Shown: positions 1-56,250 of the stretch, piece by piece
How the letters are laid out: every line of letters begins with the position of its first letter
Position numbering within the stretch: position 1 is the stretch's first letter
Assembly: GCF_963921235.1 (NCBI RefSeq)
Contig: NC_086097.1
Span: 65,412,001-65,476,000 of the forward strand
DNA length: 64,000 nt
DNA from: Mobula hypostoma
Taxonomy: Eukaryota
Reading direction: 5' to 3'
The notes under the pieces: model-generated
What the model saw: only the letters and a program-made list of their open reading frames with translations
Database searches by the model: none
Told to the model about the DNA's origin: nothing
Translations under genes and position numbers: made by a program

Positions 1-1088
1 TTTGGGAAGTACTACTTCTGACTACCTGTGTGATAACATCATCACACAAGGTGACCAGAACAAGTGTGGTTTGAAGGCCCAACTACAGCATAGCCCCTCA
101 CCATCGAGTTTGGAGATGGCTTCATCTTGCAAGTTGGTCTTGGGAGAAGCACAGTCAATGTGATCCATCTTGTAGCAAATCAGACAACAGCATGGACTGA
201 TTGTTATTGACCGGAACTAAAGGGCCATGATAAGTTTTCTGAAATCATTTCACCTGATTTGTACTTAAGTGAAAAAACAAAATTTTGCACTAAGATGTTG
301 CTAAAATAATTCGAATCAACAAGTATTTAGAGATGGGGGGTTTTACTGGGGTGATTGAGGTTTACTCAAAATGCTAAATTTGTTCGTCCATGGTAATGAT
401 GCAATTCCACAAGATAATCTAAGATTAGAGCACAGCTGCATCAACATCTAGTTTTTAATTAGTTATGGCTGCACTCTACAGCCTCGACTAATGGTACTCA
501 AAAAAAGTTTGATTGAAATCACAATTATTTTGTGCATCTTGCAGCACTTAATCTTTTTTCTATTAAATGCAAACAATTTTACCAGATAAAAGAAAATTAT
601 AACTTAATGGTATGAGCAAACATGATCTGACTATTCACAGATGCTGAACTATACTCAATCATTGGGCTTCACATCCTTTCAAAACAATTTCTGACGAGGC
701 AATATATATTTGTCTTTGCAAATGTTGCCACAAGTCATGTTGCCTGACTTTAGTACTTTCTGTCTTCTAAATTTTTTTTAAACTAGTAGCAGGTTACAAG
801 TAATTCTGCTTGGGGAGAAATAAATCTAAATGCCCAATCATTCCTAAATAGCAGGATATTCTAAATGAATCTGGAACAGATGTTGATTTTGCTTTGCAGC
901 AGACACCAACAACTGAATATCCTGATCGTGCTAGTAATTCATAAATTCATCATGAAGAACAATGATCACAGCTACATTTATTCAATACTTAAAGAACAGG
1001 AATTCCGCAGATGCTGGAAATTCAAGCAACACACATCAAAGTTGCTGGTGAACGCAGCAGGCCAGGCAGCATCTCTAGGAAGAGGTAC

Positions 1089-1124
1089 AGTCGACGTTTC
1101 AGGCCAAGACCCTTCGTCAGGATT
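1089..1124 (-). ncRNA. Minimal type I hammerhead ribozyme in pLTR (stem I mismatch)
   Basis: Minus strand AATC-CTGACGA-AGGGTCTTGGCCT-GAAA-CG-TC-GACT. Confidence 0.8.
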
Positions 1125-1414
1125 AACTGAAGGAAGAGTTAGTAAGAGATTTGAAAGTGGGAGGGGGAGGGGGAGATCCAAAATGATAGGAGAAGACAGG
1201 AGGAGGAGGGATGGAGCCAAGAGCTGGACAGGTGATAGGCAAAAGGGATATGAGAGGATCATGGAACAGGAGGCCCAGGGAGGAAGACAAGGTGGGGGGG
1301 GGGGGAACCAGAGGATGGGCAAGGGGTATAGTCAGAGGGAGAAAAAGGAGAGTGAGGGAAAGAATGTGTGTGTAAAAATAAATAACAGATGGGGTACGAG
1401 GGGGAGGTGGGGCA

Positions 1415-1804
1415 TTAGCGGAAGTTAGAGAAGTCAATATTCATGCCATCAGGTTGGAGGCTACCCAGACGGAATATAAGGTGTTGTTCCTCCAACCTGA
1501 GTGTGGCTTCATCTTTACAGTAGAGGAGGCCGTGGATAGACATGTCAGAATGGGAATGGGATGTGGAATTAAAATGTGTGGCCACTGGGAGATCCTGCTT
1601 TCTCTGGCGGACAGAGCGTAGGTGTTCAGCAAAGCAGTCTCCCAGTCTGCGTCGGGTCTCACCAATGTATAGAAGGCCACATCGGGAGCACCGGACGCAG
1701 TATATCACCCCAGCCGACTCACAGGTGAAGTGTCGCCTCACCTGGAAGGACTGTTTGGGGCCCTGAATGGTGTAAGGGAGGAAGTGTAAGTGCATGTGTA
1801 GCAC
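1415..1804 (-). pseudogene. Penelope GIY-YIG endonuclease domain (ORF C-terminus, frameshifted from RT)
   Basis: GVIYCVRCSRCGLLYIGETRRRL...EHLRSV...VATHFNSTSH...EQHLIFRLGSLQPDGMN matches the PLE GIY-YIG pattern. Confidence 0.92.
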
Positions 1805-2344
1805 TTGTTCCGCTTACAAGGATAAGTGCCAGGAGGGAGATCAGTGGGGAGGGATGGGGGGGACGAATGGACAAGAGAGTCACGTAGGGAGCGATCCCTG
1901 CGGAAAGCAGAGACGGGCGGGAGGGAAAGATGTGCTCAGTGGTGGGATCCCGCTGGAGGTGGTGGAATTTACGGAGAATAATATGTTGGACCCAGAGGCT
2001 GGTGGGGTGGTAGGTGAGGACCAGGGGAACCCTATTCCTAGTGGGGTGGCGGGAGGATGGAGTGAGAGCAGATGTGCGTGAAATGGGGTAGATGCGTTTG
2101 AGAGCAGAGTTGATGGTGGAGGAAGGGAAGCCCCTTTAAAAAAGGAGGAAATCTCCCTCATCCTGGAATGAAAAGCCTCATCCTGAGAGCAGATGCAGCG
2201 GAAACAGAGGAATTGCGAGAAGGGGATGGCATTTTTGCAAGAGACAGGGTGAGAAGAGGAATAGTCCAGGTAGATGTGAGAGTCGGTAGGCTTATAGTAG
2301 AAATCAGTGGATAAGCTGTCTCCAGAGATAGAGACAGAAAGATC

Positions 2345-2855
2345 TAGAAAGGGGAGGGAGGTGTCAGAAATGGACCAGGTAAACTTGAGGGCAGGGTGAA
2401 AGTTGGAGGAAAGTTAATAAAGTCAATGAGCTCAGCATGTGCAGGAAGCAGCGCCAATGCAGTCGTTGATGTAGCGAAGGAAAAGTGGGGGACGGATACC
2501 AGAATAGGTACGGAACATAGATTGTTCCACAAAGCCAACAAAAAGACAGGCATAGCTAGGACCCATACGGGTGCCCATAGCTACACCTTTAGTTTGGAGG
2601 AAGTGGGAGGAGCCAAAGGAGAAATTATTAAGAGTAAGGACTAATTCCACTAGACGGAGCAGAGCAGTGGTAGAGGGGAACTGATTAGGTCTGGAATCCA
2701 AAAAGAAGCGGAGAGCTTTGAGACCTTCCTGATGGGGGATGGAGATATATAGGGACTGGACATCCATGGTGAAAATAAAGCGGTGGGGGCCAGGGAACTT
2801 AAAATCATCGAAAAGTTTAAGAGCGTGAGAAGTGTCACGAACATAGGTAGGAAGT
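2345..2855 (-). pseudogene. Penelope reverse transcriptase core fragment, inactive
   Basis: [29 protein letters not shown] and RYINDC (expected YIDD, so a catalytic Asp is replaced by Asn); frameshifts downstream. Confidence 0.92.
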
Positions 2856-3329
2856 GTAAGGGCATGTGTAGCACTTGTTCCGCTTACAAGGATAAGTGCC
2901 AGGAGGGAGATCAGTGGGGAGGGATGGGGGGGACGAATGGACAAGGGAGTCGCGTAAGGAGCGATCCCTGCGGAAAGCAGAGAGAGGGGGGAGGGAAAGA
3001 TGTGCTTAGTGGTGGGATCCCGTTGAAGGTGGCGGAAGTTACGGAGAATAATATGTTGGACCCAGAGGCTGGTGGGGTGGTAGGTAAGGCCCTTCTACTC
3101 CTGCCCAAGATCCACAAACCTGCCTGTCCTGGCAGACCTATTGTCTCAGCTTGCTCCTGCCCCACCGAACTCGTTTCTGCATACCTCGACATGGTTTTAT
3201 CCCCCCTTGTTCAATCTCTCCCTACCTATGTTCTTGGCTCCATCCCTCCCCCTCCTGTCTTCTCCTATCATTTTGGATCTCCCCCTCCCCCTCCCACTTT
3301 CAAATCTCTTACTAACTCTTCCTTCAGTT

Positions 3330-3365
3330 AGTCCTGACGAAGGGTCTCGGCCTGAAACGTCGACT
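3330..3365 (+). ncRNA. Minimal type I hammerhead ribozyme in pLTR (core intact)
   Basis: AGTC-CTGACGA-AGG(GTCTCGG)CCT-GAAA-CG-TC-GACT: stem I AGTC/GACT, stem II AGG/CCT, loopless palindromic stem III (ACGT), GUC cleavage triplet. Confidence 0.9.
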
Positions 3366-3985
3366 GTACCTCTTCCTAGAGATGCTGCCTGGCCTGCTGC
3401 GTTCACCAGCAACTTTGATGTGTGTTGCTTATTCAATACTTGATGATTTTAATATCAATGAATGTATCAACTGCACAGCAAATTACAATCCAGGACAGCA
3501 TTACTGAAATGACACTTTCAGAATATATCTAATGATTCCTTCTAACGACATTGTTGTGGGGGGGGGGGTTCCAGAATTCACTGCCCACCCCTTGCTTTTT
3601 TTGAGAAAATGCCTGTAAGCCATCCTTTTGTTTGCTGCAAACCATTTTGATAAGTGTTGTTTGATGAGGAGTTTCAAGACTTTGACCTTGGTACAATTAA
3701 GGATAAATGGTAACTTAGGGATGTGCTTGGGTGCCACTGTTGGAGAAGCTCTCCATGAATTGCTCTATTGCATCTCACGGATGATACCCAAAATCTAACA
3801 GGTGCCATCGATGTTTGAGTTGGTTAATGGACTGATGAAGACTTCTTTGTCTTAGTATAATTTTCCTGAGAATTATTTTAGACATTCTGACATTAAATGC
3901 CAAGACAGTTCAATACAGACTAGTCATGGCAAACTGTTGTCTCCTGTGTTACTGCAAAAAAATACTTAAGTTTTGACCAGATGCT

Positions 3986-7271: not shown

Positions 7272-8256
7272 CTGATAAGAACTTCCGAATGAAATTGTGT
7301 GTTAGACAAGAATTATTAAATATGAAATTAATAACATAGGATCAGACCCTGATGATTTTAACCAGTAATTATTTTGTTGAAATGTGATGCTCATCACATT
7401 CAGCACGTGCTTCTCTGCACTACAACATGGAAGTACAGAATGTCCTGAAGATCAGAAGTCACTGGATCTGGACTCCATTTCCAATTCTGAACTCAGCACT
7501 AAACCAACAATAAAAAAAATCCTAACTATACTGAGCTGAGTGGTAAAAAGATGCTTTACATTCAGCCTCTCAGCTTTATTTTCGCCATAACCACAATCCC
7601 ATTCACTGGAACAGGATCACCAATCTTCATTGAGAGAGTAGGTGAGGCTAGGTGCATTTTTAACTTTTTCTGAAAGGAGACACACATGTACAAACAGTAC
7701 AGAAATCCTACTGACAGCACATAGTGCAAGAATGCAGCCATGGGACCTGATGACTAAGGCATGTCATTGCTTATGGGTCACACCATAACACGGGACAATT
7801 GGATCAGAATACCTTCAGGATGTGGACACAAAGGCCATTTGTTTGAATTCAAAAGTTGGCCTGAGGGATCTCATAGGAGACAGATATAAGGTGTTGGCGG
7901 AGTCAAGCATAATCTAATTCAATGTCTACATCTATCAAGTCAACATTATTGACTTTAATTGTTTTCACTTAACTTAATGCAAGCAAAATTACCATTTTCT
8001 ATAACGAACAAGCAACAGATTTTGCCCATGCAAAATCAGACGCTATTGTAATGGCAGATTGAATTCTACTTCTATTATAATACAACATAATTTGACTCTT
8101 TGAATATGTGCAAATCAGCATTTGATCTCAGCCTTTATCAAAAATACCTTTCTTGGGGGAAAAAACCAGCAGATTATAAGATTTTTCCATGACAAGACAT
8201 TTGCCAATTTCTATTTTGACAGTGCTTAAGATAAACTAATGGTCTATAACAAACTG

Positions 8257-9275
8257 GACTACAACAGGAATCTAAACAAATCCTTAAAGAAATGGGGATG
8301 CCTGGACATCTGATCTGCCTTATGAGAAACTTGTACAAAGATCAAGAAGCAACAGTTAGGACTAAATACGAAACAAAAACTGGTTCAAGATTGGGAAAAG
8401 AGTACGACAAGGCTGCATACTGTCACTCTACTTATTTAATCTATATGCTGAACACATCATGGGGAATGCTGGTCTCGAGGACTCAAATGTTGGAATCAAA
8501 ATTGCTGGATGAAATATTAACAACCTCAGATGATACTACTCTAATGGGTGAGAGTGAGGAAGATCTGAGGAAGCTTCTAATCAAAGTAAAAGACGAAAGT
8601 GCTGGCTTGTTGCTCAATATTAAGAAAACCAAGATTATGTCGACCAGCCCTATTAACTCCGTGGTAATAAATGAAAAGGAAGTGGAAGCAATGACGGATT
8701 TTGTCTTTCTTGGTTTAAAGATTTCTATAGATGGTAACTGCAGCCACGAAATTAAACGGCGCTTACTTCTGAGAAAGGCAGCAATGGCAAATTTAGATAA
8801 AATACAGAAGACCAGAGTTATAGCATTGTCTACAAAGGTCCGTATAGTCAAGACTATGATATTTCCAGTTGTGATGTATAGCTGTGAGAGCTGAACTATT
8901 AGTAAGGCTGAGTACAAAAGAATTGACATCTTTGAACTTGGCTGCTGGAGGAAAGTGTTAAGAGTCCGTTGGACAGCATGAAGGTACAACAAGTCAATAT
9001 TTCAAGAAATACAGCCAGACTGCTCACTGGGAGTGAAAATATTTTGGCCACATCATGAAAAGGCATGATTCCTTGGAGAAGACTCTCATGTTAGGTAAAA
9101 CAGAAAGTAAAAGATGGAGAGAACAACAGAGGCTACGATGGATAGATAATATTACTCAGACAATGTGTATGACCTTGGAGGATCTTAGAGAGGCAGTTTC
9201 CAACAAGAAGGCTTGGTGTGTAGGAGTCCATGAGGTCATGAAGAGTCGGACTCCACTTAACAACTGAATAACAAC
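8257..9275 (+). mobile_element. BovB-like RTE LINE, 5'-truncated and frameshifted
   Basis: MGMPGHLICLMRNLY..QEATVRT, DDTTLMGESEEDL, LNIKKTKIM, CSHEIKRRLLL, FPVVMYSCES, DSLEKTLMLG, KSRT; 11-bp TSD ATAACAAACTG (8246-8256 / 9276-9286); (AAC)n-like tail. Confidence 0.92.
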
Positions 9276-22625: not shown

Positions 22626-23724
22626 TAGAACATAGAATAGTACAGCACAGTACAGGCCCTTCGGCCCACAAAGTTGTGCCGACCCTTAAACCCTACCTCC
22701 CATATAACACCCCCCCCTTAAATTCCTCCATCTACCTGTCTAGTAGTCTCTTAAATTTCACTACTATATCTGTCTCCACCACTGACTCAGGCAGTGCATT
22801 CCACGCACCAACCACTCTCCGAGTAAAAAACCTTCCTCTAATATCCCCCTTGTACTTCCCACCCCTTACCTTAAAGTGATGTACTGAGCAGTGGTGCCTT
22901 GGGGAAGAGGCGCTGGCTGTCCACTCTATCTATTCCTCTTAATATCTTGTATACCTCTAACATGTCTCCTCTCATCCTCCTTCTCTCCAGAGAGTAAAGC
23001 CCTAGCTCCCTTAATCTCTGATCATAATGCATACTCTCTAAACCAGGCAGCATCCTGGTAAGTCTCTTCTGTACCCTTTCCAATGCTTCCACATCCTTCC
23101 AATAGTGAGGCAACCAGAAATGGACACAGTACTCCAAGTGTGGCCCAACCAGAGTTTTATAGAGCTGCATCATTACCCCGCAACTCTTAAACTCTATTCC
23201 TCAACTTAAGAAAGCTAACACCCCATAAGCTTTCTTAACTACCCTATCTACCTGTGAGGCAACTTTCAGGGATCTATGGACATGTACTCCCAGATCCCTC
23301 TGCTCCTCCACAATACCAAATATCCTGCCATTTACTTTGTACTCTGCCTTGGAGTTCATCCTTCCAAAGTGTACCACCTCACACTTCTCCAGGTTGAATT
23401 CCATCTGCCACTTCTCAGCCCACTTCTGCATCCTATCAATGTCTCTCTGCAATCTTTGACAATCCTCTACACTATCTACAACACCACCAACCTTTGTGTC
23501 GTCTGCAAACTTGCCAACCCACCCTTCTACCCCCACATCCAGGTTGTTAATAAAAATCACAAAAAGCAGAGGTCCCAGAACCAATCCTTGTGGGACACCA
23601 CTAGTCACAACCCCCCAACCCAAATATACTCCCTCCACCATGACCCTCTGCTCTCTGCAGGCGAGCCAATTCTCAATCCACCTGGCCAAACTTCCCTGGA
23701 TCCCATGCCTTCTGAGCTTCTGAA
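22626..23724 (-). mobile_element. CR1 LINE 3' portion (young family)
   Basis: GVPQGLVLGPLLFVIFIN, KFADDTK, YKTLVGPHLEYCVHFW; TTCTATGTTCTA tail. Confidence 0.95.
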
Positions 23725-23783: not shown

Positions 23784-23878
23784 CTAGTCCTGACGAAGGG
23801 TCTCGGCCTGAAACGTCGACTGCGCCTCTTCCTATAGATGCTGCTTGGCCTGCTGCGTTCACCAGCAACTTTGATGTA
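23784..23878 (+). mobile_element. 95-bp Penelope pLTR micro-insertion (hammerhead plus tail)
   Basis: Perfect 14-bp TSD TGTAGCATCCAGAT (23770-23783 / 23879-23892); content matches the pLTR from about 3329 onward. Confidence 0.9.
23786..23821 (+). ncRNA. Minimal type I hammerhead ribozyme (core intact)
   Basis: AGTCCTGACGAAGGGTCTCGGCCTGAAACGTCGACT, identical to 3330-3365. Confidence 0.88.
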
Positions 23879-24169
23879 TGTAGCATCCAGATATAATGTT
23901 TTCCATAGTGCATCTTCAAAAAAATTAGTGACAATCATTAGGGATGTGTCAAAGAAGAAAACAGATGAGGGAGGGTTGATGGGCAGAGGTGCCAAGTGGT
24001 GGAGTTTTAGAAGTGTACTGAGAGAGATGCTGCTGGGTGACAGGTGAAAACATCAGAATGGAGGCACATGGGATGGAAAAAGCGAAGTGAACGAAGGAAG
24101 AATGACCCTATGTGAATCGCTGAGAATGGGAAAGGAACACAGGGCGTGAGGGTTGCCATTGCACTGAAC

Positions 24170-26539: not shown

Positions 26540-28659
26540 CTGTATTAAAACAAGGGCCACATACTGAAATTAAGATGTCAACACAATGGTCAATAACATT
26601 GCTGCCCAATGATGCTTCACCGGTACAATGCAATGAGATTGCTCCAAGAGGAGTGCAACTCTGGATTTCAGTTCCCCAATGAATTCCCAAAGTCCTGCAA
26701 ATCATTCTCTCTCAAATACGATCCAGTTCCTTTTTGAAGATCAATTGACTGATTGCCCCAACCCCCACACATAGAAAATTCCAAGTTAAAACTGCTGCTA
26801 GTAAAATAGGCTTCCCTCACCTTTCAAGTCTTCTAACCATCATGAAGTTACTATCATAGAGAAAACGATGGGCTGGGGAGAACTGTGCAGCCAAACAATG
26901 TCTGGGGTGGCGGGTGGGGGGAAAGGCAGCTTCCACCGCATCTATCAGGAGCAGAGACTATGGGACCTGGATAGTCTGTCCACACACATTGAGAAGTTGC
27001 AGACTATCCCTGGCAAAGACATACTGGCCAGGGTACAGCCTTAAGCCCCACATCAAGGCAGTGAGCAGCCATACCACTTGCTCTGACTTGCTTGACATCA
27101 TTGGCAGCCACTCCACACTGAGACAAATTCTTGGCACCCAGGTTCCCAGTGCAGCAATGGAGAAGATAGGGGTAACCCAAAGAGTTCACAAGTAGGAATT
27201 TTGGCCACAGAAGATGCCTGCACTCCCAGAGTCAGAAAATCCATAACAATAGACTCCCGAAAGCTATTCATATGTATGCACTATACATGCATCAATGAGC
27301 AGGGGAGGACCTGTAAACTTGGAAAGGATCCTTTCAATACTGATTCCATTAGCACTCTCATTTCTGGAAAAGCACATAGCATGCTGAGCTAGGCACTGTC
27401 TTTTACCATTTTTTTTAAAATAGACTAGCCATTAACATCGTGATATATTAACATTGTGTTTGCAAGTCATAAGTTATTATAAAATTGACCTATTGTGCTT
27501 TCCAATATAGAAGTTGTAGTATTGTTTTATAAGAATCCAAAGTTTTGTTAAATTTCAGTATGCAAATCATGAAAGTTTAATCATTTTGGATTAGACATAC
27601 ACCAACACATTTCAGATTAAATTGGATAAATTTAATTTAAATAATTTATGACAATTAATCCTGTTATAATTTTGAATCTATTGTTTGTTTTAATATAGAT
27701 TTTTTATTTTATCACATTCCTATGTTTAAGACAAAAAAAAACTCCCTTCATGAAAACATCAAGGGGCAATTATTTTTAAATTGAAATTATAGCTCAGGTG
27801 GAACGGCAGTGTCAGGGAGATGCCATAACCATGAGGCCTGAATGGTTTTTAATTTTTGGTCCTTCTTTGCATCTGACTGGCCTTCTGTTACAACACAAAC
27901 CCAATGTATCTGCAGTTAAACTTTTCAACAATCTTTTGCTACCTCTCATTTTATCTCTCTGAGTTAAAATATGTACAGCAAAAAGAGAAGGTGAGAAGCC
28001 AACAACATTGTAAGACCGATGCAAGCAGAGCAAGAAAAGCATGGTATCACTCTGGAATACAATACCATGAGCATCAGTGAAAATGGGGCTATGGCTATGT
28101 TACTTGTGTTATACCCTGGTTTAAGACCTTGTTTTATTGTATTAATACATTTATGATGCTGGGTATTATATCTTCTGTGATTTTCTCAAAAAGCAATGTG
28201 TTCCTTTAATTACAATATACAATGTGTAATTCCGTCGATTCATAAGTTAGGTTTGTTGAATTAACCAATAGGATTTAGCTTGTTAATATTTGGCCAATAA
28301 AATGCCCCAGAATATCCTGGATCGACAGGAGGTAGCTATTTTCGAGAGAGTGAGAGTGAGAAAGAAGAAATAAGGAAAATTGAAACTGATAACACACATA
28401 ACAGAGGAACATGAACACATTTTGAAGGACAAATACTGCTGTTGGGAAATCTTCATGCAGTCTCGTGGATAATGTACAGATAACTTGTAATTAGCTAGTA
28501 ATCACACACCCTTGGAGAAAGTTTGAGATGCCTTTCAGCTAATATGTGTGTCATGGGCTCATTTCTTTATTTTGTTTGTTACAGTTTGAAATATTTTGTC
28601 AGTACAACTTTAATCTAATTATATACTGGCATATACAGAAGACAGTAAGTGGGAATAAC

Positions 28660-29660
28660 AATTTTCTGATTGGCTGCCAGTGACTAGTGGTTTTCTTCAG
28701 GGGTCAGTATTGGGATCGCTACTTGTCACATTCTTTGTCAATGATTTGGATAAGGGAATTGATGGCTTTGTGGCAAAATGTGCGGATGATAAGGAGATAG
28801 GCGGAGGGGTAGGTAGTGCTGAGGAAACAATGCAATTGCAGCAGGCCTTAGACAAATTGGAAGAATGGGCAAAAAACAGCAGATGGAATACAGTATTGGG
28901 AACTGCATGACAATGCATTTTGGTGAAAGGAACAATAATGCGGACTATTATCTAAATGGGGAGAAGGTTCAAACATCAGAGGTGCAGAGGGACTTAGGAA
29001 TCCTTGTGCAAGATTCTCAGAAGGTTAATTTACATGTTGATTCTGTGGTAAAGAAGGCAAATGCAATGTTTGCATTTATTTCAAAGGGATAGAATATAAA
29101 AGCAAGGAGAAAATGTTATAAAACACTAGTCAGGCTGCATTTGGAGTATTGGTAACAGTTCTGGACTCCACATCTCAGAAAGGATATGCTGTTATTGGAG
29201 AGAGTCCAGAGGAGGTTCCCGAGGATGATTCCAGAATGAAGGGGTGTTTGAGGAGCGTTTGGCATCTTTGGAATTTAGAAGAATGAGGGGGAATCACATT
29301 GAAACCTACTGAATGTTGAAAGGACTAGATGGGGTGGATGTAGAGAGGATGATTCTTATGGGGGAGGTATCCAGGACTAGAGGACACAGCCTCAAAACTG
29401 AGGGGCGACCTTTTAGAACAGAGGTAAGAAGGATTTTTTTTAGCCAGGGAGTAGTAAATCTGTGGATTGTTCTGCCACCATCTGCAGTAGGGACCATGTC
29501 TGTGGGTATATTTAAGGTGGTCAGTCAGGGCATCAAAGGATATGGTGAGAAGGCAGCTGTACAGGGTTAAGTGGGATCTGGGATCAGCCATGACGGAATG
29601 GTAGATCAAACTCAAGGGGCTGAATGGCCTAAATCTGCTCCTATGTCTTATGGTCTTATT
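28660..29660 (+). mobile_element. CR1 LINE 3' portion (older family)
   Basis: SG.LQGSVLGSLL, AKCADDK, ERVQRRF, RTEVRRIFFSQGVVNLW; 3' end CTGCTCCTATGTCTTATGGTCTTA. Confidence 0.9.
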
Positions 29661-30525
29661 GCTTTTTGGCAAACAGTAAATTTGCATGTGTGGTCTGTGT
29701 TCATATTAGTAACAATCCTACTTTTCCTTAAAAAGAATATTTAAACTTTTATGTTTTGTATTTACCCATGTTTATTTATTGGAAATGGCCTTCTCAACAT
29801 TATTCCCATACATTGTCGAGCTATGTTACTGTTAGTTTGTATTCACAGTAATAGCTAGCTCATTACAAGCCTACAGTGAGTGGGTTACATGCTTTTGTGG
29901 CTTGTTTGGAATGAATGCTGCATGAATGTTATACTTTGGCTGTATATTGATTGGATAGCCTGTATAGCCCGGGGCAACTTATTGGCCAAATGTTAGCAAG
30001 ACAAATCTTATTGGCCAATTCAACAAGCCTACCTTATCAATAAACTGAATTACACAACTGTATAATGTAATTAAAGGAACACATTGCATTTTGAGAAAAT
30101 CTGCAGAAAATAAAACACCCAAGAGCAGAGCTGTATTAATACAATAAAGCAAGGTGTTAAACCAGGGTATTACACTTGTAACCATTCATTTACCTTAGTA
30201 AATGTAGCAAAGTGACTTCAAGTTGAATTGCTAACAATGCCACATCCTAATGATCCCCCCTTCTGCTAGGTGAAATCTTCTTTCTCTCAACAAATCGAAT
30301 ATACCACTGATTAAGTTGATGTTAATGGAATTATGGTGAATTTCTACCTCACTGCTTCTTGTGGAGGGGATTACAGCTTTCAAGCACACAGCAAATAATA
30401 GTGGGAATCACAGACCAGAAGAGAACTAGGCAATAGGTGGCTGTCTCTTTTTCCAATTCTGCTGTGCAAGAAGTCAAGAGGCAAGCTAACCAGCTACAAG
30501 AAAAAAATCTTCTGGTCCCATGTTT

Positions 30526-30746
30526 AAAATGCAAACAACAGGAATTCTGCAGATGCTGGAAATTCAAGCAACACACATCAAAGTTGCTGGTGAACGCAGC
30601 AGGCCAGGCAGCATCTCTAGGAAGAGGTACAGTCGACGTTTCAGGTCGAGAGTCCTGACGAAGGGTCTCGGCCTGAAACGTCAACTGTACCTCTTCCTAG
30701 AGATGCTGCCTGGCCTGCTGCGTTCACCAGCAACTTTGATGTGTGT
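30526..30746. mobile_element. 221-bp fold-back Penelope pLTR element
   Basis: TSD TGGTCC(C/T)ATGTTT (30513-30525 / 30747-30759); 83-bp inverted arms 30569-30651 / 30666-30748. Confidence 0.92.
30651..30686 (+). ncRNA. Minimal hammerhead ribozyme at the fold-back apex (stem I mismatch)
   Basis: AGTC-CTGACGA-AGGGTCTCGGCCT-GAAA-CG-TC-AACT. Confidence 0.75.
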
Positions 30747-30959
30747 TGGTCCTATGTTTGCTAGTTTATGAGTTATTAGAAATTCCCAGCTTCATTGCTG
30801 AAAATATGAAGTAAGGTTATGAAATGTAGTTCTTTTGAGATAATAGAGGAGAATATTGAAGGAGCAGAGGAGAGATAGAAAACTAAGACCTGAGTTGCAC
30901 CAGTTTGCTTCCTAAGCTGTACCAAACATCAATCAAGCATTAACCATTCATGCAACAAC

Positions 30960-31065
30960 AGAACCTCTTAACCATCCTTTTATGCATCAAGTTGCTGCCA
31001 CGCGATTGGCTGATTAAATATTTGCATTAACAAGCAGGTGTACCGAATAAAGTGGCCACTGAGTG
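30960..31065 (-). mobile_element. Tc1-like element end fragment
   Basis: AATAAAGTGGCCACTGAGTG|TA; same TIR and subterminal sequence as 42871-43431. Confidence 0.75.
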
Positions 31066-32181
31066 TATATGGATTTTTAAGTTAAAATTTACAATTATTT
31101 AGTTGCTGTACCATTGTTATAACAATCTATATGACAATAAAATTTAAGTCAGATGCACTAAATTTCCCAGTGGAGCATTGGACTCCTCCATAAGTGCCTC
31201 CTTACACTGCTTGTGGGCTAATATCTTAAAGAATATAACTGCAGTGTGATATCATAATTTTACAGAGCATGAGAGGTTGGTTCAAAGTCCTTAACACTTT
31301 ACAAAAGACCACAGAAATATTTCTGGCAAAGCTGAGACAGTCAGGCACAAATCTCACTCCAAGGAACAAAACTATGATTTTCTCCTGGCACACTCAAGTG
31401 AAGCTTTAATATCACAGGTTATGACTTACGTGATCCAAATTTAGCTTTCAAATTTACATGTACATTTGTACTTACTGTACAAAGATGATTCAAAGATGTC
31501 TTCAGTTTAAAAATAGGCTCACATAGCTTTATCTGTCCATATATTCCCAACTGTTTTAACTGATAAGTATTAAATATTAAATTACAATTATCTTAAAACA
31601 TCAACCAGAAAGTAATTCAAAAATCAAGATAACAAAAACAAAATTATTTGATATGAATTGGTCCTGATTTAAGGAATGCCAGATAGTTGACTGTTATTCC
31701 TCATGTTGGAAATGGATGTAATCTGAATATCAATATTTCCAATCACTGGAGTTCAATATCCCTTATTACAGCTAAACTAAGTACAAATCTAACCAAGAAT
31801 AACAAACAATAGTTGATTAAATACACAATATTGTGGTCAATCAAAGATTGTGAACTCAACTTATGTAAACGCTGGGAATAGCATCAATTTTTGTTATGAT
31901 TCATTTTATACCACCAGCCTTATTGCATGGGAAAGTTTTCTCCCATGACAAACTGCAGAAAAGCTCTACAATTGTCTGGAGTTGTAGAGTGATTAAAATA
32001 TACCAGTATTTTCAGATCCACATTCAAATAGTAGACACATTGTGAAAAGGATATGCAAAATTTTCTTTGCCCTTGCATTCACAAAATTATACTGAAAAAC
32101 TTAGAATGTTTTTCTTACTGGGACTTGAATGTGATGTTAAAATTACCAAGTTTTGTTCAAAATGTCTCCCATATTAATATA

Positions 32182-38577: not shown

Positions 38578-39505
38578 AAATGTCTGCAGAAATTAGTGTT
38601 CAGCAATGGAGGGAAATAAACACTTGAATCCTTCATCAGGACCGGAAATGAAGGAGGCAGAAGCCAGAATAAAAAAGGTGGGGGGAGGGGAAACAGTGCA
38701 AACTGGCAAGTGATAGGTGTGACTAGTTGAGCCGGAAGGTGGGTCAGTGAGGGAGGAGGAGCAGAAAGGGGATATGTGGAAGAGGGAAAGGGCTGAAGGA
38801 GGAAACTAACAGGATACTGGCAGATAGGCAATGAGGAGATCCTGCCTTTCATGGCAGACAGAATGAAGGTGCTCGATACCAGGAGGCAGGATCTCCTGAT
38901 GGCCACCCGTTTCAATTTGACTTCCCATTCCCTTTCCGACATTATAGTCCACAACCTCATCGACTGCCACAATGAGGCCACACTCAGGTTGTAGAGCAAC
39001 ACCTCATATTCCGTCTGGGTAGCCTTTAAGCCTGACAGCATGAACATTGACTTCTTCAGCTTTGGTAATTCCCCACTCCCTTCTTCCTTCTTTTTTTCTG
39101 TTCCCCAAACTGGTCACCCTCTCACCCCTTCTCTTCTTATCTGCCTTTCACCTCCTTCCACTTCCCTTCCTCCTCTTTCTTTCATGGTCCACTGAACTTT
39201 GTTTCCCAGTTCCTTCTTCTCCATTTCCTTCCTCAGCCCTTTCTTCTTCCACCTATCCCCTCTCACCTTCTTACTTCTTCCACGCTGCCCCTCCCACCAA
39301 AACCCCCCTCACCTCATCTGTCACCCACCAGTTTGCACTCCTTCCCCTGTCCCCACTTTCTTATTCTGGCTTCTGTCCCCTTCCTTTCCAGTCCCAATAA
39401 AGGGCCTCAGCCTGAAAGATAAACTGTTCATTCCCCTCCAGTGATGCTGGCTGACTTGCTGAATTCCTCCAACATTACGCTGCTTAAGATTTCCAGCTTC
39501 TGCAG
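38578..39505. mobile_element. Older Penelope derivative with inverted arrangement
   Basis: Minus arm to about 38878, plus arm from about 38880 carrying the GIY-YIG C-terminus (H..FRLGS..PD.MNIDF) and pLTR; decayed hammerheads at about 38625-38645 (-) and 39390-39427 (+). Confidence 0.75.
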
Positions 39506-42870: not shown

Positions 42871-43431
42871 TACTCAGTGGCCACTTTATTAGGCCACCTA
42901 TACAGCTGCTCATTAATGCAAACATCTAATTAGCCAATCAATTGGTAGCAACTTAATGCATAGAAGAAAGTAGCCATGGTCAAGAGGTTCAGTAGTTATT
43001 CAAACCAAACATCAGAATGGGGAGGAAATGTAATTTACTGTTTGACTGTTGAATGATTGTTGGTGCTGGGCAGGGTAGATTGAGTATCTCAGAAACTGCT
43101 GAACTCCTGGGATTTTCATGCAGAACAGTCTCAGGAGTTTACAGAGAATGGTGCGAAAAACAAAATAAAACATCCAGTGAGTGGTAGTTCTCGGGGTGAA
43201 AACGCTTTGTTAATGAGAGAGGTCAGAGGAGGATAGCCAAGCTGGTTCAAACTACAAGGAAGGTGACAGTAACTGAAATAACCATCTGTTACAACAGTGG
43301 TGTGTAGAGGAGCATCTCTAAATGCTCAATAATCAAACTTGAAAGTGGTTGGACTACAGCAGAAGATCATGAACATACAGAAATAGACTCAGTGGCCACT
43401 TTGAGGTACCTAATAAAGTGACCATTGAGTG
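42871..43431 (+). mobile_element. Tc1/mariner non-autonomous element with transposase N-terminal remnant
   Basis: TIRs ACTCAGTGGCCACTTTATTAGG / CCTAATAAAGTGACCATTGAGTG|TA; remnant MIVGA..GRLSISETAELLGFSCRTVSGVYREWCEKQ (Tc1 HTH). Confidence 0.88.
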
Positions 43432-45800: not shown

Positions 45801-46092
45801 GGCCATTTTAACAGTCAATGATGTAACTTTTTTTTTTGCAGTTGTTGCTTAGAAATAGGATCTAACATGAGGAGAGTGATTGGGCAGGATATCAGCATTG
45901 AACAGGTTTGGCAGGATGGCATGCCGACTGAGCTTGGGAATGTGGTCCACGACCAGGGACTAGAGAGGTTGTTTGTAAGCCAAAGAATTTTTTTTAAATT
46001 GAGGGATATTAGTTAGTGTAATTCTCCAAGATGGCTTACAATGGGAAATAAAGTTAAAAAGTAAGGACAATTAATCACTCCCTTAATATTAC

Positions 46093-46299
46093 AAAAACAT
46101 GCAAAATTTGCTATGTTTCTTAAATTTGTATTTGCAATCATAAATTTAAAGAGAAAATTATAAAAACATGGAAAATTTGCTATGTTTCTTAAATTTGTAT
46201 TTGCAATCATAAATTTAAAGAGAAAATTATAAAAACATGGAAAATTTGCTATGTTTCTTAAATTTGTATTTGTAATCATAAATTTAAACAGAAAATCAT
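46093..46299. repeat. Minisatellite, 3 x 69 bp
   Basis: Units start at 46093, 46162 and 46231 and are nearly identical. Confidence 0.95.
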
Positions 46300-48409: not shown

Positions 48410-51400
48410 TAAGATATCTAAGGAGTAGAATTAGGCCATTTCACCATTTCATTATAACTGATCCATTTCTTTCTCAGCATGAACCTCCTGCCTTCTCCTG
48501 AATCAACAAGCAAATTAACCATTAAGGAATCCTGCACGAGGAATCCCGAGTCCCCATGAACCTCAGATTATTTCTCTCCATTTAGAACATAGTCTACACT
48601 TCAATTTCTTCTACCAAAGTGCATGACCATACACTTCCCAACACTGTATTCCATCTTTCACTTCTTATTCCATTCTCCTAATTTGTCTAAGCTCTTCTAC
48701 AGCCTCTCTACTTCCTCAACAACTGTTTTGGCCAAAAAAGCCATCCATTCCATCATCTAAAGCACTGACATATAACGTAAAGAGAAGTGGTCAAAACAGA
48801 GACCTCTTTGGAACACCACTAGTCACCAGCAGCTAGCTAGAAAAGGTTCCGTTTAACATAGAATAGAACATAGAACAGGACAGTACATTACAGGCCCTTC
48901 GGCCCACAATGTTGTGCCAACCCTCAAACCCTGACTCCCATATAACCCCCCACCTTAAATTCCTCCATATACCTATCTAGTAGTCTCTTAAACTTCACTA
49001 GTGTATCTGCCTCCACCACTGACTCAAGCAGTGCATTCCATGCACCAACCACTCTCTGAGTAAAACACCTTCCTCTAAAATCCCCCTTGAACTTCCCATC
49101 CCTTACCTTAAAGCCATTTCCTCTTGTATTGAGCAGTGGTGTCCTGGGGAAGAGGTGCTGGCTATCCACTCTACCTACTCCTCGTATTATCTTGTACACC
49201 TCTACCATGTCTCCTCTCATCCTCCTTCTCTCCAAAGAGTAAAGCCCTAGCTCCCTTAATCTCTGATCATAATGCATACTCTCTAAACCAGGCAGCATCA
49301 TGGTAAATCTCCTCTGTACCCTTTCCAATGCTTCCACATCCTTCCTATAGTGAGGCGACCAGAACTGGACACAGTACTCCAAGTCTGGCCTAACAAGAGT
49401 TTTATAGAGCTGCATCATTACATCGCGACTCTTAAACCCTATCCCTCGACTTAAGAAAGCTAACACCCCTTAAGCATTCTTAACTACCCTATCTACCTGT
49501 GAGGCAACTTTCAGGGCTCTGTGAACATGCACCCCCAGATCCCTCTGCTCCTCCACTCTACCAAGTACCCTGCCATGTACTTTGTACTCTGCCTTGGAGT
49601 TTGTCCTTTCAAAGTGTACCACCTCACACTTCTCCGGCCACTTCTCCTCACACTCCATCTGCCACTTCTCAGCCCACTTCTGCATCCTATCAATGTCTCT
49701 CTGCAATCTTCGACAATCCTCTACACTATCTACAACACCACCAACCTTTGTCTCATCTGCAAACTTGCCAACCCACCCTTCTACCCTCACATCCAGGTCA
49801 TTGATAAAAATCACTAAAAGTCGAGGTCCCAGAACAGATTCTTGTGGGACACCACTGGTCACAATCCTCCAATCTGAATGTACTCCCTCCACTACCACCC
49901 TCTGCCTTCTACAGGCAAGCCAATTCTGAATCTACCTGGCCAATCTTCCCTGGATCCCATGCCTTCTGACTTTCTGAATAAGCCTACCGTGTGGAACCTT
50001 GTCAAATGCCTTACTAAAATCCATATAGATCACATCCACTGCACTACCCTCATCTATATGCCTGGTCACCTCCTCAAAGAACTCTATCAGGCTTGTTAGA
50101 CACGATCTGCCCTTCACAAAGCCATGCTGACTGTCCCTGATCCGACCATGATTCTCTAAATGCCCATAGATCCTATCTCTAAGAATCTTTTCCAACAGCT
50201 TTCCCACCACCGACGTAAGGCTCACTGGTCTATAATTACCCAGACTATCCCTACTAACTTTTTTGAACAAGGGGACAACATTCGCCTCCCTCCAATCCTC
50301 CCGTACAATTCCTGTGGAAACGAGGACATAAAGATCCTAGCCAGAGACTCAGCAATCTCTTCCCTCGCCCCGTGGAGCAGACCTGGGGAATATTCCATCA
50401 GGTCCCGGGGACTTATCCATCCTAATGTACTTTAACAACTCCAACACCTCCTCTTCCTTAATATAACATGCTCCAGCACATCAACCTCACTCATATTGTC
50501 CTCACGGTCATCAAGTTCCCCCTCATTGGTGAATACCGAAAAGAAGTATTCATTGAGGACCTCACTCACTTCCACAGCCTCCAGGCACATCTTCCCACCT
50601 TTATCTCCTGTCATCCTTTTGTTCTTCACATAATTGAAGAATGCCTTGGGGTTTTCCTTTACCCTACTCGCCAAGGCCTTCTCATGCCCCCTTCTTGCAC
50701 TTCTCAGCCCCTTCTTAAGCTCATTTCTTGCTTCCCTATATGTCTCAATAGACCCATCTGATCCTTGCTTCCTAAACCTCATGTATGCTGCCTTCTTCCA
50801 CCTGACTAGATTCTCCACCTCACTTGTCACCCATGGTTCCTTCACCCTACCATTCTTTATCTTCCTCACCAGGGCAAATTTATCCCTAACATCCTGCAAG
50901 AGATCTCTAAACATCGACCACATGTCGATAGTACATTTCCCTGCAAGAACATCATCCTAAATCACACCCACAAGTTCTAGCCTTTTGGCCTCAATTTGCC
51001 TTTCCCCAATTAAAAATTTTCCTGTCCTCTCTGATTCTTACCTTTTCCATGATAAATGCTAAGGGCCAGGGAGTGGTGGTCACTGTCCCTCAGATGCTCC
51101 CCCACTGAGAGATCTGTGACCTGACCCAGTTCGTTACCTAGTAATAGATCTAGTATGGCATTCCCCCTAGTCGGCCTGTCCACATACTGTGACAGGAACC
51201 GTCCTGGACACACTTAACAAACTCTGCCCCATCTAAACCCTTGGAGCTAATCAGGTGCCAAACAATATTAGGGAAGTTAAAATCACCCATGATAACAACC
51301 CTGTTATTTTTGCACCTTTCCAAAATCTGCCTCCCAATCTGCTCCTCTGTATCTCTGCTGCTACTAGGGGGCCTATAGAATACCCCCAATAGAGTAACTG

Positions 51401-53220
51401 CTCCCTTCCTGCTCCTGACTTCCACACATATTGACTCAAAAGAGGATCCTGCTACATTACCCACCCTTTCTGTAGCTGTAATAGTACCCCTGACCAGTAA
51501 TGCCACCCCTCCTCCCCTTTTTCCTCTGTCTATCCCTTTTAAAGCACTGAAATCCAGGAATATTGAGAATCCATTCCTGCTCTGGTGCCAGCCAAGTCTC
51601 TGTAATGGCCACTACATCATAATTTCATGTATGTATCCAAGCTCTCAGTTCATTATCTTTGTTCCTGATGCTTCTTACATTGAGGTACACACACTTCAGC
51701 CCTTCTGCCTTACTACTTTTACACCATTTATTCTGCTTCTCTTTCCTCAAAGCCTCTCTATATTTATTTCCACTATTTGCCTCCTGCCAATCAGCCACTG
51801 CTTTATCCATGCTAGCATCTTTCCGGCAATACCATGGGCTCTCAACTTGTTAAGTAGCCTCATTTGTGGCACCGTGTCAACGGCCTTCTGAAACTCTAAG
51901 ATCACAACATCCATTTATTCTCCTTTGTCTGAACTGATTGTCATTTCTTCAAAGAATTCCAACAGATTTGCCAGGCATGACTTTCCCTTAAGGAAACCTT
52001 ACTGACTTTAGCCTGTTTTATCATATTTCTCCAAGTACCCCAAGTTGACACCCTTAATAGTCAACTTCAACATTTTCCATCCACTGAGGTCAAGCTAACT
52101 GGCTTATAATTTCCTTTCTTCTGCCTCTCTCTTTTTTTGAATTGTGGAGTGACATTTACAATTTTTCAATCCTGTGGAACAATGCCACAATCTGTTGATT
52201 CTTGAAAGATCATTACTAATACCGCCACAATTTCTTCAGCCACCTCTTTCAGAACCCTGGGATGTAGGCCAGGTGATTTAACTACCTTCAGACTTTTTAA
52301 TTTCCCAAGCACTTTCTCCCTAGTAATTGCAACTTCATTCACTTCTGTCCCCCGCCCCCCGACAATTTTGAACTTCTGGCATACTGCTAATGACTTCCAC
52401 AGTGAAGACTGATGCAAAAAACATATTCAGTTCATCTGTTATTTCCTTGTTCCTCATTACTACCTCTCCAGCATCATTTTCCAGCAATCTGATGTTTATT
52501 CCTGCCTCTCTTTTACTTTTTATATATCTGAAGAGACTGTTGGCATCCTCTTCAATATTATTGGCTAGCTTACCATCAAATTCCATCTTTTCCCAGTAAC
52601 TTTTGCTCTATTTTATGCTCTCTCTTTGGTTTTTATGCTGGCTTTGACATTCTTTGTCAGCCACAGTTACATCATCCTGCCTTTAGAATATTTCTTCTTC
52701 TTTGGGATGTATCTATCCTATGCCTTTTAAATTCCTCCCAGAAACTCCACCCACTGGTGCTCTACCATCATCCCTGCTATAGTTCCTGGCCAATCAATTT
52801 TGGCCAGCTTGTCTCCCACGCCTCTGTAATTCTCTCTCTTCCATTGTAATCTGACTTTAGCTTTTCCCTCTCAAAATGCAGGGTGAATTCTATCATATTA
52901 TGATCACTGGCTCATCAAACTTCCTTTGTCTTAAACTCTCTAGTCAATTCCAGTTTCTTGCACAACACTCAATCTAGAATAGTTGATCCCCTTGTGGGCT
53001 CAACCACAAGCTGCTCTAAAATGCCATCTCATAGACATTCCACAAATCCCCCTCTTGGGATCTGGCACCATCCTGATTTTGACACATTGAAATACCCCGT
53101 GACTATCGTAGGATTGCCTTTTTGACATGCAATTTCTATCTCCCATTGTTATTTGCAGCCCACATCATTGCTACTGTTGGGAGATCTGTATACAATTCCC
53201 ATCAGGGTCCTTTCACCCTT
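48410..53220 (-). mobile_element. Older CR1 LINE (segments 48410-48855 and 51763-53220), split by a younger CR1
   Basis: Sequence is continuous across the insert (...AAAAGGTTCCGTTT|ATTTCCACTATTTGCC...); remnants KSPG.LHPRVLKEVAEEI, FRYIKSKR, GIVYRSPNS. Confidence 0.85.
48856..51762 (-). mobile_element. Young CR1 LINE, nearly whole ORF2 (APE endonuclease plus RT), frameshifted
   Basis: CVYLNVRSIRNK, LGVFYRPP, MGDFNFPNI, NYRPVSLTSVVGKLLE, DFSKAFDKVPH, GVPQESVLGP, KFADETK; TTCTA-repeat tail; possible TTTA TSD. Confidence 0.95.
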
Positions 53221-53792
53221 TTTAATTCCACATCCCATTCCCATTCTGACATGTCTATCCACGGCTTCCTCTACTGTAAAGATGAAGCCACACTCAGGTT
53301 GGAGGAACAACACCTTATATTCCGTCTGGGTAGCCTCCAACCTGATGGCATGAACATTGACTTCTCTAACTTCTGCTAATGCCCCACCTCCCCCACGTAC
53401 CCCAGCCATTATTTATTTATATACACACATTCTTTCTCTCTCTCTCCTTTTTCTCCTCTGTCCCTCTCACTATACCCCTCCCCCCACTTCCTTCTCCCTG
53501 GGCCTCCTGTCCCATGATCCTCTCATATCCCTTTTGCCAATCACCTGTCCAGCTCTTGGCTCCATCCCTCCCCCTCTGTCTTCTCCTATCATTTTGGATC
53601 TCCCACTCCCCCTCCCACTCTTAAATCTTTTACTAGCTGTTTCTTCAGTTAGTCCTGATGAAGGGTCTCGGCCTGAAACATCGACTGTACCTCTTCCTAG
53701 AGATGCTGCCTAGCCTGCTGCGTTCACCAGCAACTTTGAGGTGTGTTGGTTGAATTTCCAGCATCTGCAGAATTCCTACTGTTTGCGTTTTT
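53221..53792 (+). mobile_element. Penelope 3' fragment (endonuclease C-terminus plus pLTR), same family as 991-3428
   Basis: FNSTSHSHSDMSIHG...GSLQPDGMNIDFSNF followed by the full pLTR; no TSD seen. Confidence 0.93.
53651..53686 (+). ncRNA. Hammerhead ribozyme, CpG-decayed (stem III ACAT)
   Basis: AGTC-CTGATGA-AGGGTCTCGGCCT-GAAA-CA-TC-GACT. Confidence 0.7.
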
Positions 53793-54364
53793 AAATACTC
53801 TATTTTCAGCCCTATCATGCTGGATCCCATTGTTAGAGTAATTTTTGGGTTTAGGTCATTAACACTTAGTACTGTAAATGGCTTCAGCCACCAGTCTTCT
53901 GTTCCTTGACAATGCATTTCCTAAAAGCTATGAATACCGGAATACCAGTCCAGACGCTGCTGGTGAGAAGGTGTGAGGTTTGCATGCAGTTTCGAAGACA
54001 GCATTATCCATACTTTGTAAATATGGATTGCCCTTCATGTTAAGCACGTAACAAATAAATGTATTGTGGATTCAGTTTGGAAACTGAATACCAGTCCTGA
54101 TACTGCTGGCGCCGATGTGATGGATATAATCGGGAGGTGTGAAGTTTGTATGTAGCTTCAAAAGAAAGCATTGTCTATACTTTGTAAATATGGACTTGTC
54201 CTTTGTGTGTGAAGCAAGTAAATATCAAGCCTCACATTGGGCAGCAGACCTTTCCACCGAAAGGGTCTCCGTATGCCTGCTGTACCTCGTTTTGTCGAAT
54301 AAAAAAGCTGCTTTGTACCCACCAGTAACTCTCCCTCCAGTGATTTCATTCATGCAACAACACC

Positions 54365-56250
54365 ATCCCCTGCCAAATTAGTTTAAACTCTCCCAAACAG
54401 CTCTAGCAAACCTGCCCACAAGGTTATTGGTCACTCTTGGGTTCAGATGTAACCTGTCCCATTTGTATATGCTGTACCTTCCCCAGAAAAGATTCCAATC
54501 ACCCAGAAATCTGAACCCCTGCTCCATGGATCAGTTCCTCAGCCATGCATTTATCTGTCAAATGTTCCTGTTCTTACCCTCACTGGCATGTGGCATAGCA
54601 GTAATCCAGAAATTACTACTTTTTAGCTTTCTACCCAGCTCCCTAAAGTCTCTCTTCAGCACCTCCTCAGCTTTCCTACCTACGTCACTAGTGCAAATAT
54701 GTATCAAGACTTCGGGCTGCTCACCTTTCCTCTTTAGAAACCGTTGACCCGATTCCAGACATCCCTGACTCTGGTACCTGGAAGCGACAAATCATCCAAG
54801 TGTCTCTATATCATGTTCACAGAATCTCATCTCTATTCCTCAAACTAAAGTATCTCTTATTACTACTGTAGTCCTTTTCACTTCTCATCACTTCTGAGCC
54901 ACAGTGCCAGACACTGCCTGAGATCTAGCCACCGCAGCTCCCCGCTGGTAGGTTGTCCCCATCAGCAGTATCCAAAATGGTGTACTTACTATTAAGGGGA
55001 ACGGCCCGAGGAGTACTCCATACTGGCTGCCTGTTTCCCTTTCTTAGTCATAGTCATACTTTATTGATCCCGGGGGAAAGTGGTTTTCGTTACAGTTGCA
55101 CCATAAATAATAAATAGTAATAGAACCATAAATAGTTAAAGAGTAATATGTAAATTATGCTAGTAAATTATGAAATAAGTCCAGGACCAGCCTATTGGCT
55201 CAGGGTGTCTGACCCTCCAAGGGAGGAGTTGTAAAGTTTGATGGCCCCAGGCAGGAATGACTTCCTATAACCCCCTGTGCTGCATCTCATAGGAATGAGT
55301 CTCTGGCTGAATGTACTCCTGTGCCCACCCAGGACATTATGTAGTGGATGGGAGACATTGACCAAGATGGCATGCAACTTAGACAGCATCCTCTTTTTCA
55401 GACACCACCGTGGGAGAGTCCAGTTCCATCCCCACAACATCACTGGCCTTACGAACGAGTTTGATGATTCTGTTGGTGTCTGCTACCCTCACCCTGCTGC
55501 CCCAGCACACAACAGCAAACATGATAGCACTGGTCACCACAGACTCATAGAACATCCTCAGCATCGGCCGGCAGATGTTAAAGGACCTCGGTCTCCTCAG
55601 GAAATAGAGACAGCTCTGACCCTTCTTGTAGACAACCTTAGTGTTCTTTGACCAGTCCAGTTTATTGTCAATTCGTATCCCCAGGTATTTGTAATCCTCC
55701 ACCATGTCCACACTGACCCCCTGGATGGAAACAGGGGTCACCAGTACCTTCGCTCTCCTCAGGTCTACCACCAGCTCCTTAGTCTTTTTCACATTAGGCT
55801 GCAGATAATTCCACTTGCACCATGTGACAAAGTTTCCTACTGTAGCCCTGTAGTCAGCCTCATCTCCCTTGCTGATGCATCCAACTATGGCAGAGTCATC
55901 CGAAAACTTCTGAAGATGACAAGACTCTGTGCAGTAGTTGAAGTCCGAGGTGTAATGGTGAAGAGAAAGGGAGACAAGACGGTCCCCAGTGGAGCCCCAG
56001 TGCTGCTGATCACTCTGTCGGACACACTGTGTTGCAAGCACACGTACTGTGGTCTGCCAGTCAGGTAATCAAGAATCCATGATACCAGTATCATCTTTTG
56101 ACAGTAACCCAGTTATTTGCCTCCTGCAACCTAGGGGTGACAACCTCCCTGTAGTTCCTATCTATCACTTCCTCAGTCTCTGGTATGAGCCAAAGGCCAT
56201 CAAGCTGCAGCTCCAGTTCCTTAACATTTTCTCTGAGGAGCTGCAGTTTG
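54365..56250 (-). mobile_element. Decayed CR1 5'/ORF1 region (54365-55044 and about 56090-56250), interrupted by a Rex1/Babar LINE
   Basis: Continuity ...CTGTTTCCCTT|...TGACAGTAACCCAG; sequence resembles the CR1 ORF1 region. Confidence 0.65.
55045..56088 (-). mobile_element. Rex1/Babar-type LINE 3' part (relatively young)
   Basis: WILDYLTGRPQYV, HLQKFSDDSAIVG, YKYLGIRIDNKLDWS, KKGQSCLYFLRR; (ATGACT)n tail. Confidence 0.92.

Follow-up and report, generated by a model that had tools for sequence, protein, structure and literature searches.

A 221-nt fold-back insert in Mobula hypostoma is the shortest form of the published back-to-back insertion pattern of Penelope-like retrotransposons

The 221-nt fold-back insert described here represents the back-to-back pattern known from publications on Penelope-like elements (PLEs), in its shortest form and with a mutated ribozyme motif; it is an ordinary case of a known kind of insertion and not a new MITE-like element. 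We consider it probable that the insert is a dead copy, with extreme 5' truncation, left by a very abundant Neptune-type Penelope-like retrotransposon, and that the hairpin belongs to a class of recurrent by-products that form and then decay. The insert lies near the middle of a 64,000-nt stretch of the Mobula hypostoma genome (hereafter the window), and all positions given below are those of the window. The features on which the analysis relies are as follows.

30513-30525, plus strand: left copy of the 13-nt target-site duplication, differing from the right copy at 1 position
30526-30568, minus strand: the Penelope-like family's 3' tail (43 nt), present only on the left, matching the tails at 991-1026 and about 53749-53794
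30569-30651, minus strand: left arm, an inverted pLTR copy truncated inside helix II, without the CUGANGA half of the ribozyme and with a private change at 30646
30651, no strand: fold-back junction, an A common to both arms (1-nt microhomology), read from sequence and alignment
30651-30686, plus strand: minimal type-I hammerhead motif with its boxes and helices I and II; A instead of the family's G at 30683
30651-30748, plus strand: right arm, a whole tailless pLTR whose start base is that of the solo copy at 23786 and whose end is the tailless 3' end of the family
30747-30759, plus strand: right target-site duplication, its first 2 nt overlapping the arm end; the organism D contig aligns only from 30748
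991-3428, no strand: given for comparison, outside the insert; a sister insertion from this family, arranged alike, with the minus strand carrying the tailed arm and the plus strand the tailless one

Results

Looking at the borders of the insert, we found one target-site duplication round the whole unit, TGGTCCCATGTTT on the left and TGGTCCTATGTTT on the right, with 221 nt between the two copies. With pairs of points drawn at random, a comparable duplication (a 12-mer repeated within 3 nt of both points, 1 mismatch allowed) came up in 2 of 20,000 trials. The arms (30569-30651 and 30666-30748) are 83 nt each and 98% complementary, and they enclose a spacer of 14 nt; two pairs are mismatched (30634/30683 and 30646/30671), and the longest perfect run is 65 bp. 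On re-measurement the insert, arm and spacer lengths and the number of arm differences agreed with the preliminary description, which had reported a duplication-flanked 221-bp insert with 83-bp arms (2 differences) and a 14-nt loop containing CUGACGA. The right arm ends in TG, and these two bases also belong to the right duplication. On the left, 43 nt separate the duplication from the arm, with no such sequence on the right, and these 43 nt are the 3' tail of the family in reversed orientation. Since the tail lies outside the left arm, the arms are not terminal repeats. Each arm is 1 base away from the intact copy B, each through its own change. An assembly artefact was considered and rejected, in view of the two private arm differences, the duplication, the recovery of 0.96 of the words in organism A runs and an organism B contig that joins arm to flank.

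The RNA fold predicted for the insert has an energy of -181 kcal/mol (z -24.7), and none of 200 shuffles was as stable. The insert had also been described as a fold-back with the ribozyme core in its hairpin loop. CUGACGA does lie in the 14-nt spacer, but the predicted stem extends into this spacer past a 1-nt bulge and leaves a loop of only 5 nt, GACGA; as the stem reaches that far, the core is predicted to be partly paired.

The arms match copies at 991-1122, 3330-3430, 23786-23884 and 53651-53794 (92-99%), and older matches are found at 61207-61341 and near 39400. These pLTR copies bear out the proposal that the insert is built from two Penelope pLTR ends. The arms are moreover 96-99% identical to both ends of 991-3428, which is one 2.4-kb insertion enclosed by a perfect 13-nt duplication (978-990 and 3429-3441), with the tailed arm on the left and the tailless arm on the right. 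This sister copy retains coding remnants with Pfam matches to RVT_1 (E=0.0017) and GIY-YIG (E=0.0079); as the frames are broken, neither match reaches its curated cut-off. Between the RT and the GIY-YIG remnants (region 1650-1950, minus strand) we found the linker CKRNKCYTC, of the form CX4CxxC, and a CX2-5CxxC linker is given as a mark of the Neptune and Nematis clades (PMC8557442). The order RT, linker, GIY-YIG seen in the sister copy is that of the Neptune clade, and these remnants support a parent family that, like Neptune or Nematis, would have had a CX4CxxC linker and, at its C-terminus, a GIY-YIG domain. The Neptune-type parent suggested in the preliminary description is thus upheld, though the Nematis linker is similar and the assignment here comes from linker and domains.

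Two of the six pLTR-bearing loci of the window are two-armed inside one clear duplication, and one is a solo tailless pLTR with the same start base as the right arm; an abutting duplication was not found at three of the six. The solo copy (23786-23880, about 95 nt) is flanked by a 14-17-nt duplication and carries an unmutated minimal hammerhead. Within 991-3428 a 248-nt stretch is repeated internally (1775-2022 and 2845-3092, 94%), and a piece of RT in inverted orientation (about 3100-3231) directly adjoins plus-strand 3' UTR sequence; these rearrangements are several template jumps within one event. Older Penelope-like remnants in opposite orientation occupy 38630-39500 (38630-38805 against 39224-39403, 72%). 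They are possibly an old fold-back; a duplication was looked for at this locus and not found.

The insert had been likened to MITEs (class II), and it does share with them its short length, its non-coding nature, the fold-back and the flanking duplication. It is not a MITE, because its repeats are non-terminal and its origin is a retroelement. The terminal repeats of a MITE abut the duplication at both ends, whereas here the tail intervenes on the left; MITE ends are described as deriving from, and being moved by, a DNA transposon (PMC8969392), whereas the arms of the insert are PLE pLTRs and imply no transposase partner. Its layout is instead that of the published inverted pLTR with a one-sided tail, also present at the 2.4-kb scale in 991-3428. 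A second comparison is offered by the non-LTR retrozymes, which are likewise reported as short non-coding PLE-derived sequences with a type-I hammerhead (bioRxiv 10.64898/2026.07.22.740005). As described in that source they are head-to-tail tandems with at least two complete hammerheads, whereas the insert is head-to-head and has one damaged motif. No tandem array at the insert was present among the nine tandem-repeat entries.

We then considered the hammerhead itself, following the standard numbering and cut-site rule. Helix I pairs 30651-30654 with 30683-30686, CUGACGA occupies 30655-30661, the helix II region is 30662-30674, and GAAACGUC occupies 30675-30682. Both catalytic boxes and helices I and II are present, without helix III, which makes the motif a minimal hammerhead. 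Helix I is not intact: A is found at 30683 where about 80% of the summed family depth has G (run X1), and the first pair is consequently a C-A mismatch in the insert where copies 3334 and 23790 have C-G. Rfam gave no match at the gathering threshold across the window, and the hammerhead remained without a match even at E<=10. Seven sub-threshold Rfam matches near the insert were set aside, six of them being generic microRNA-hairpin fits far below their cut-offs.

Minimal hammerheads have been reported in PLE pLTRs, those of fish Neptune elements included, with no cleavage reported for the single motif and low activity in dimers (PMC4209133; review PMC6765202). The insert shares with the motifs described in PMC4209133 the CUGANGA and GAAA boxes, the unpaired base ahead of helix II, the lack of a real helix III (palindromic ACGU) and a helix I of 4-5 bp, and opposite-strand pairs 100-700 bp apart were already noted there in 2014. 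It differs from them in that the whole motif is kept in one arm only, the first helix I pair is mismatched and helix II, of 3-4 bp, is short. The computed cost of imposing both helices (I and II) was +34.7 kcal/mol in the whole insert and 12.3 kcal/mol in the right arm alone (compare with +7.8 and +5.2 kcal/mol in two free unmutated copies), and the hairpin context adds about 35 kcal/mol against the hammerhead fold. These predicted costs agree with the earlier suggestion that the stem would block the hammerhead fold in cis. The point is moot, since the minimal motif is reported as non-cleaving in monomers and helix I carries a private G>A; the motif in the insert is unlikely to cut anyway.

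Two possible roles of the ribozyme were examined and rejected. A cut by the ribozyme would fall at 30682/30683, and its distance of 32 nt to the junction leaves the turn unexplained. The loop as a half-ribozyme acting in trans would have 4+3 bp of pairing only and would itself be partly paired in cis.

A splice-acceptor-like site (pyrimidine tract and AG) was also observed 2-6 nt upstream of the hammerhead core in all five copies with native upstream sequence (3300-3333; 1121-1150, minus strand; 53625-53654; 61180-61210; 39365-39394), an observation made post hoc and with a score inflated by the pyrimidine-rich UTR. In a rough scan the two old copies ranked 3 of 8,341 AG sites and the young copies 105-177; TACTAAC lies just upstream of the acceptor-like site in two young copies, and the right arm and the solo copy both begin at the acceptor-like AG. 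In the Penelope element of D. virilis, the intron end is reported to fall at helix I's 5' end (PMC4209133).

Public sequencing runs gave a view of the family and of relatives. Twenty-four runs matched, eight of them with at least half of the words and none recorded as RNA, and the contigs of four runs (X1, X5, X9 and X12) were aligned to 30628-31227. In X1 alone 70,098 contigs aligned; the family is very large. The tailless end was recovered at 30748, where alignment to the stretch breaks off for 701 X1 contigs and 550 X5 contigs. Run X9, assigned to RNA only by guess, had no cover over 30768-30947 and one contig over 31041-31227; we draw on neither result for expression.

Two contigs inform on the age of the insert, both with at most 25 letters on the repeat side, which is below the 31-letter bridging rule. 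One, from organism B, extends from 30723 on into the flank of the insert, with 8 differences in 311 nt, and since it joins the arm to this flank the insert appears to be shared with organism B. The other, from organism D (632 nt), aligns only from 30748, with 15 differences in 228 and 398 unaligned letters outside the comparison, and is likely an empty site. These alignments suggest that the insert is common to a close relative and absent in a more distant one. Divergence between the arms (2/83) did not differ from that of the A-B flank (8/311, Fisher p=1.0) or of the A-D flank (p=0.26), in a test with little power to detect selection, suggesting that the insert decays at the rate of its flank.

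The same contigs allowed us to look for the fold-back junction elsewhere in the family. Summed depth on the left-arm side was 5,991 in X1, 2,307 in X5, 85 in X9 and 287 in X12, and in the three runs that cover the single-copy flank left-arm depth was 655 times that of the flank in organism A, 316 times in organism B and 30 times in organism D; contig depth is not copy number, and some of it may come from short family contigs placed in reverse. The left-arm bin held 1.9-5.7e-4 of the mirror bin in four of four runs, without a burst in one lineage. Record 1 of X1 crosses the junction collinearly (30630-30711) with 5 differences and 2 gaps relative to the insert locus, and so does record 17 of X5 (30628-30718) with 9 differences and 1 gap; these junction-crossing contigs have 22-26 letters on the repeat side, again below the bridging rule. 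Among the variants listed for X1, six are deletions of 1-2 nt at 30643-30649, each represented by 1-12 contigs; the greatest depth belongs to a 2-nt-shorter register with 2-nt microhomology, and further joints, among those listed, also end at 30650-30652. Since similar junctions with 1-2-nt variants occur at other loci, the junction is probably not unique to the insert. The deletion variants listed sum to about 2,120 in X1 and 1,114 in X5; as they represent only about 2,100 of the roughly 6,000 of left-arm depth in X1, the exact register could be the commonest form. Pattern scans returned no match in viral contigs and none in genome contigs, and the one match in metagenome contigs (L001) was rejected as a chance match in a GC-rich bacterial contig.

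The window contains other repeats as well. A very high-copy short repeat, which we take to resemble a Tc1-type terminal repeat, lies at 42872-42997 and, 200 nt to the right of the insert, at 30954-31070; the latter has a summed depth of about 5e5 in X1 and X12, and several contigs join this repeat to a pLTR end. Inverted repeats of about 210 nt (83%), 1.9 kb apart, surround LINE-like RT fragments at 28099-30182, in what looks, from its sequence, like the decayed remains of a DNA transposon into which a LINE had inserted. LINE remnants with Pfam matches to RT and AP-endonuclease lie at 48864-51900, 22626-23724, 55379-56068 and 8250-8894 (22626-23724 and 48864-49978 are 89% alike), and at 46088-46296 a 69-nt AT-rich unit is present in three tandem copies that are 97% alike.

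Discussion

The insertion pattern published for PLEs consists of an inverted 5'-truncated copy with a 30-40-bp tail at one end and one duplication (PMC8557442, PMC3846280). The insert has the inverted 5'-truncated copy head to head with the adjoining pLTR, and because the same layout occurs at 991-3428 together with RT and GIY-YIG remnants, we regard it as the published layout with the body gone. The closest described cases are Pen2a_Av and Pen2_Av of Adineta vaga (PMC3846280; scheme in PMC8557442, Figure 2), in which head-to-head pLTR copies, one of them shorter, are likewise reported with a one-sided tail, one duplication and a small palindrome at the junction. The insert differs from them in having no ORF or body, being reduced to two pLTR ends in 221 nt; its duplication is 13 nt long, compared with the 8-10 bp reported for the A. 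vaga elements (PMC3846280), and its tail of 43 nt is slightly longer than the published range.

The most likely way for such a structure to arise is as follows. At an AT-rich site the GIY-YIG endonuclease of the element would nick one strand and, about 13 nt away, the other, and each nicked strand would prime reverse transcription on the pLTR end of the element RNA, one at the tail end and the other at the internal tailless site. Synthesis of the two cDNAs would halt after about 125 and 100 nt, close to the ribozyme's 5' end, and the products would be joined through the quasi-palindrome TCCT-GACGA-AGGG, with TCCT and AGGG as the inner stem, and one shared base. Hairpins of this kind would arise repeatedly near the junction and then decay neutrally. 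The purified anole PLE protein is reported to cut and extend both strands at AT-rich DNA in vitro, with reverse transcription starting at two sites that bracket the tail and with ribozyme cleavage unneeded (PMC11167929). Palindromes at inverted PLE junctions have been noted and interpreted as self-priming (PMC3846280). In our calculations the snap-back register TCCT-GACGA-AGGG reproduces the junction exactly, at a weak +1.5 kcal/mol; the 2-nt-shorter register has -0.6 kcal/mol, and neither is the minimum-energy fold, which lies in another register (-2.6 kcal/mol).

The junction could have three histories: a family that copies itself, a single event, or repeated independent formation at a preferred site. 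The preliminary description had weighed only the first two, and we find the last likelier than either: the best fit is a by-product that recurs at a short quasi-palindrome, the mixed registers and the even share across lineages favouring a hotspot. A self-propagating non-autonomous family would require transcription of a fold-back master on its tail-ending strand, and copying of this master by the RT and endonuclease of the parent into tens to hundreds of near-identical MITE-like inserts. The left-arm depths of 655, 316 and 30 times the single-copy flank could be read in this way, and so could an exact register that is possibly the commonest, as a clonal family would also give; in addition, pLTR sequences are reported to suffice in cis for mobilisation in trans (PMC3846280), and non-autonomous PLE derivatives are known (PMC8557442; bioRxiv 10.64898/2026.07.22.740005). 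However, the junction variants and other joints indicate several origins, the share of junction-like depth is alike in the four runs, and the depth, which is not copy number, may include misplaced contigs. The start region for RT would moreover sit within the 83-bp duplex, and a weak search of the indexed stretches returned no look-alike. We thus hold a family to be unlikely, and we give the same low credence to its stronger version, in which two pLTR ends copied by a Neptune-type RT to tens to hundreds of copies would serve as a dsRNA source against the parent. A search that covered mainly papers outside subscription found no description of such a self-copying family and no published hairpin PLE family in cartilaginous fishes.

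A single twin-priming accident is in our opinion even less probable. It would make the junction unique, with all left-arm depth coming from misplaced short family contigs, in line with its presence at only one of the six pLTR-bearing loci of the window, with the 56 X1 contigs that fit two places of the stretch, and with the drop of X9 depth from 30643 to 30646, as reverse-placed contigs would give. Against this, record 1 of X1 and record 17 of X5 cross the junction and yet differ from the locus, and gapped variants require letters on both sides of it.

A co-opted, transcribed hairpin that feeds Dicer or ADAR and yields small RNAs against the family might be suspected from its 65-bp perfect duplex and from arms only 1 base from young family sequence, and in transformed Drosophila Penelope siRNAs were reported to map to inverted regions (PMC3681739). 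As such inverted-repeat siRNAs are already published, this reading would bring no new principle, and the locus would not be special as an siRNA source because much longer inverted copies such as 991-3428 exist. In the same review the Drosophila siRNAs are said to have silenced the element inefficiently (PMC3681739). Conservation of the insert was not above the level of the flank, in a weak test, and a scan of 21 candidate frames brought no host exon to light: nine of these frames came from the 16 candidates of a rough splice scan and 12 were long frames, and they yielded LINE-type domains only, a result with which an intron is still compatible. Co-option is the most improbable of the readings considered, and we give it hardly any weight.

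Taken together, the insert is most likely a genomic fossil of two-strand priming by a PLE, consistent with the in vitro work of 2024, and in itself it matters little. Very short two-armed inserts in a genome this rich in PLEs could be used to test how the two cDNAs are joined, through their registers, the side of the tail and the orientation of the loop. If copies with the exact junction proved to be clonal, they would represent a retrotransposon counterpart of a MITE with a built-in source of silencing RNA.
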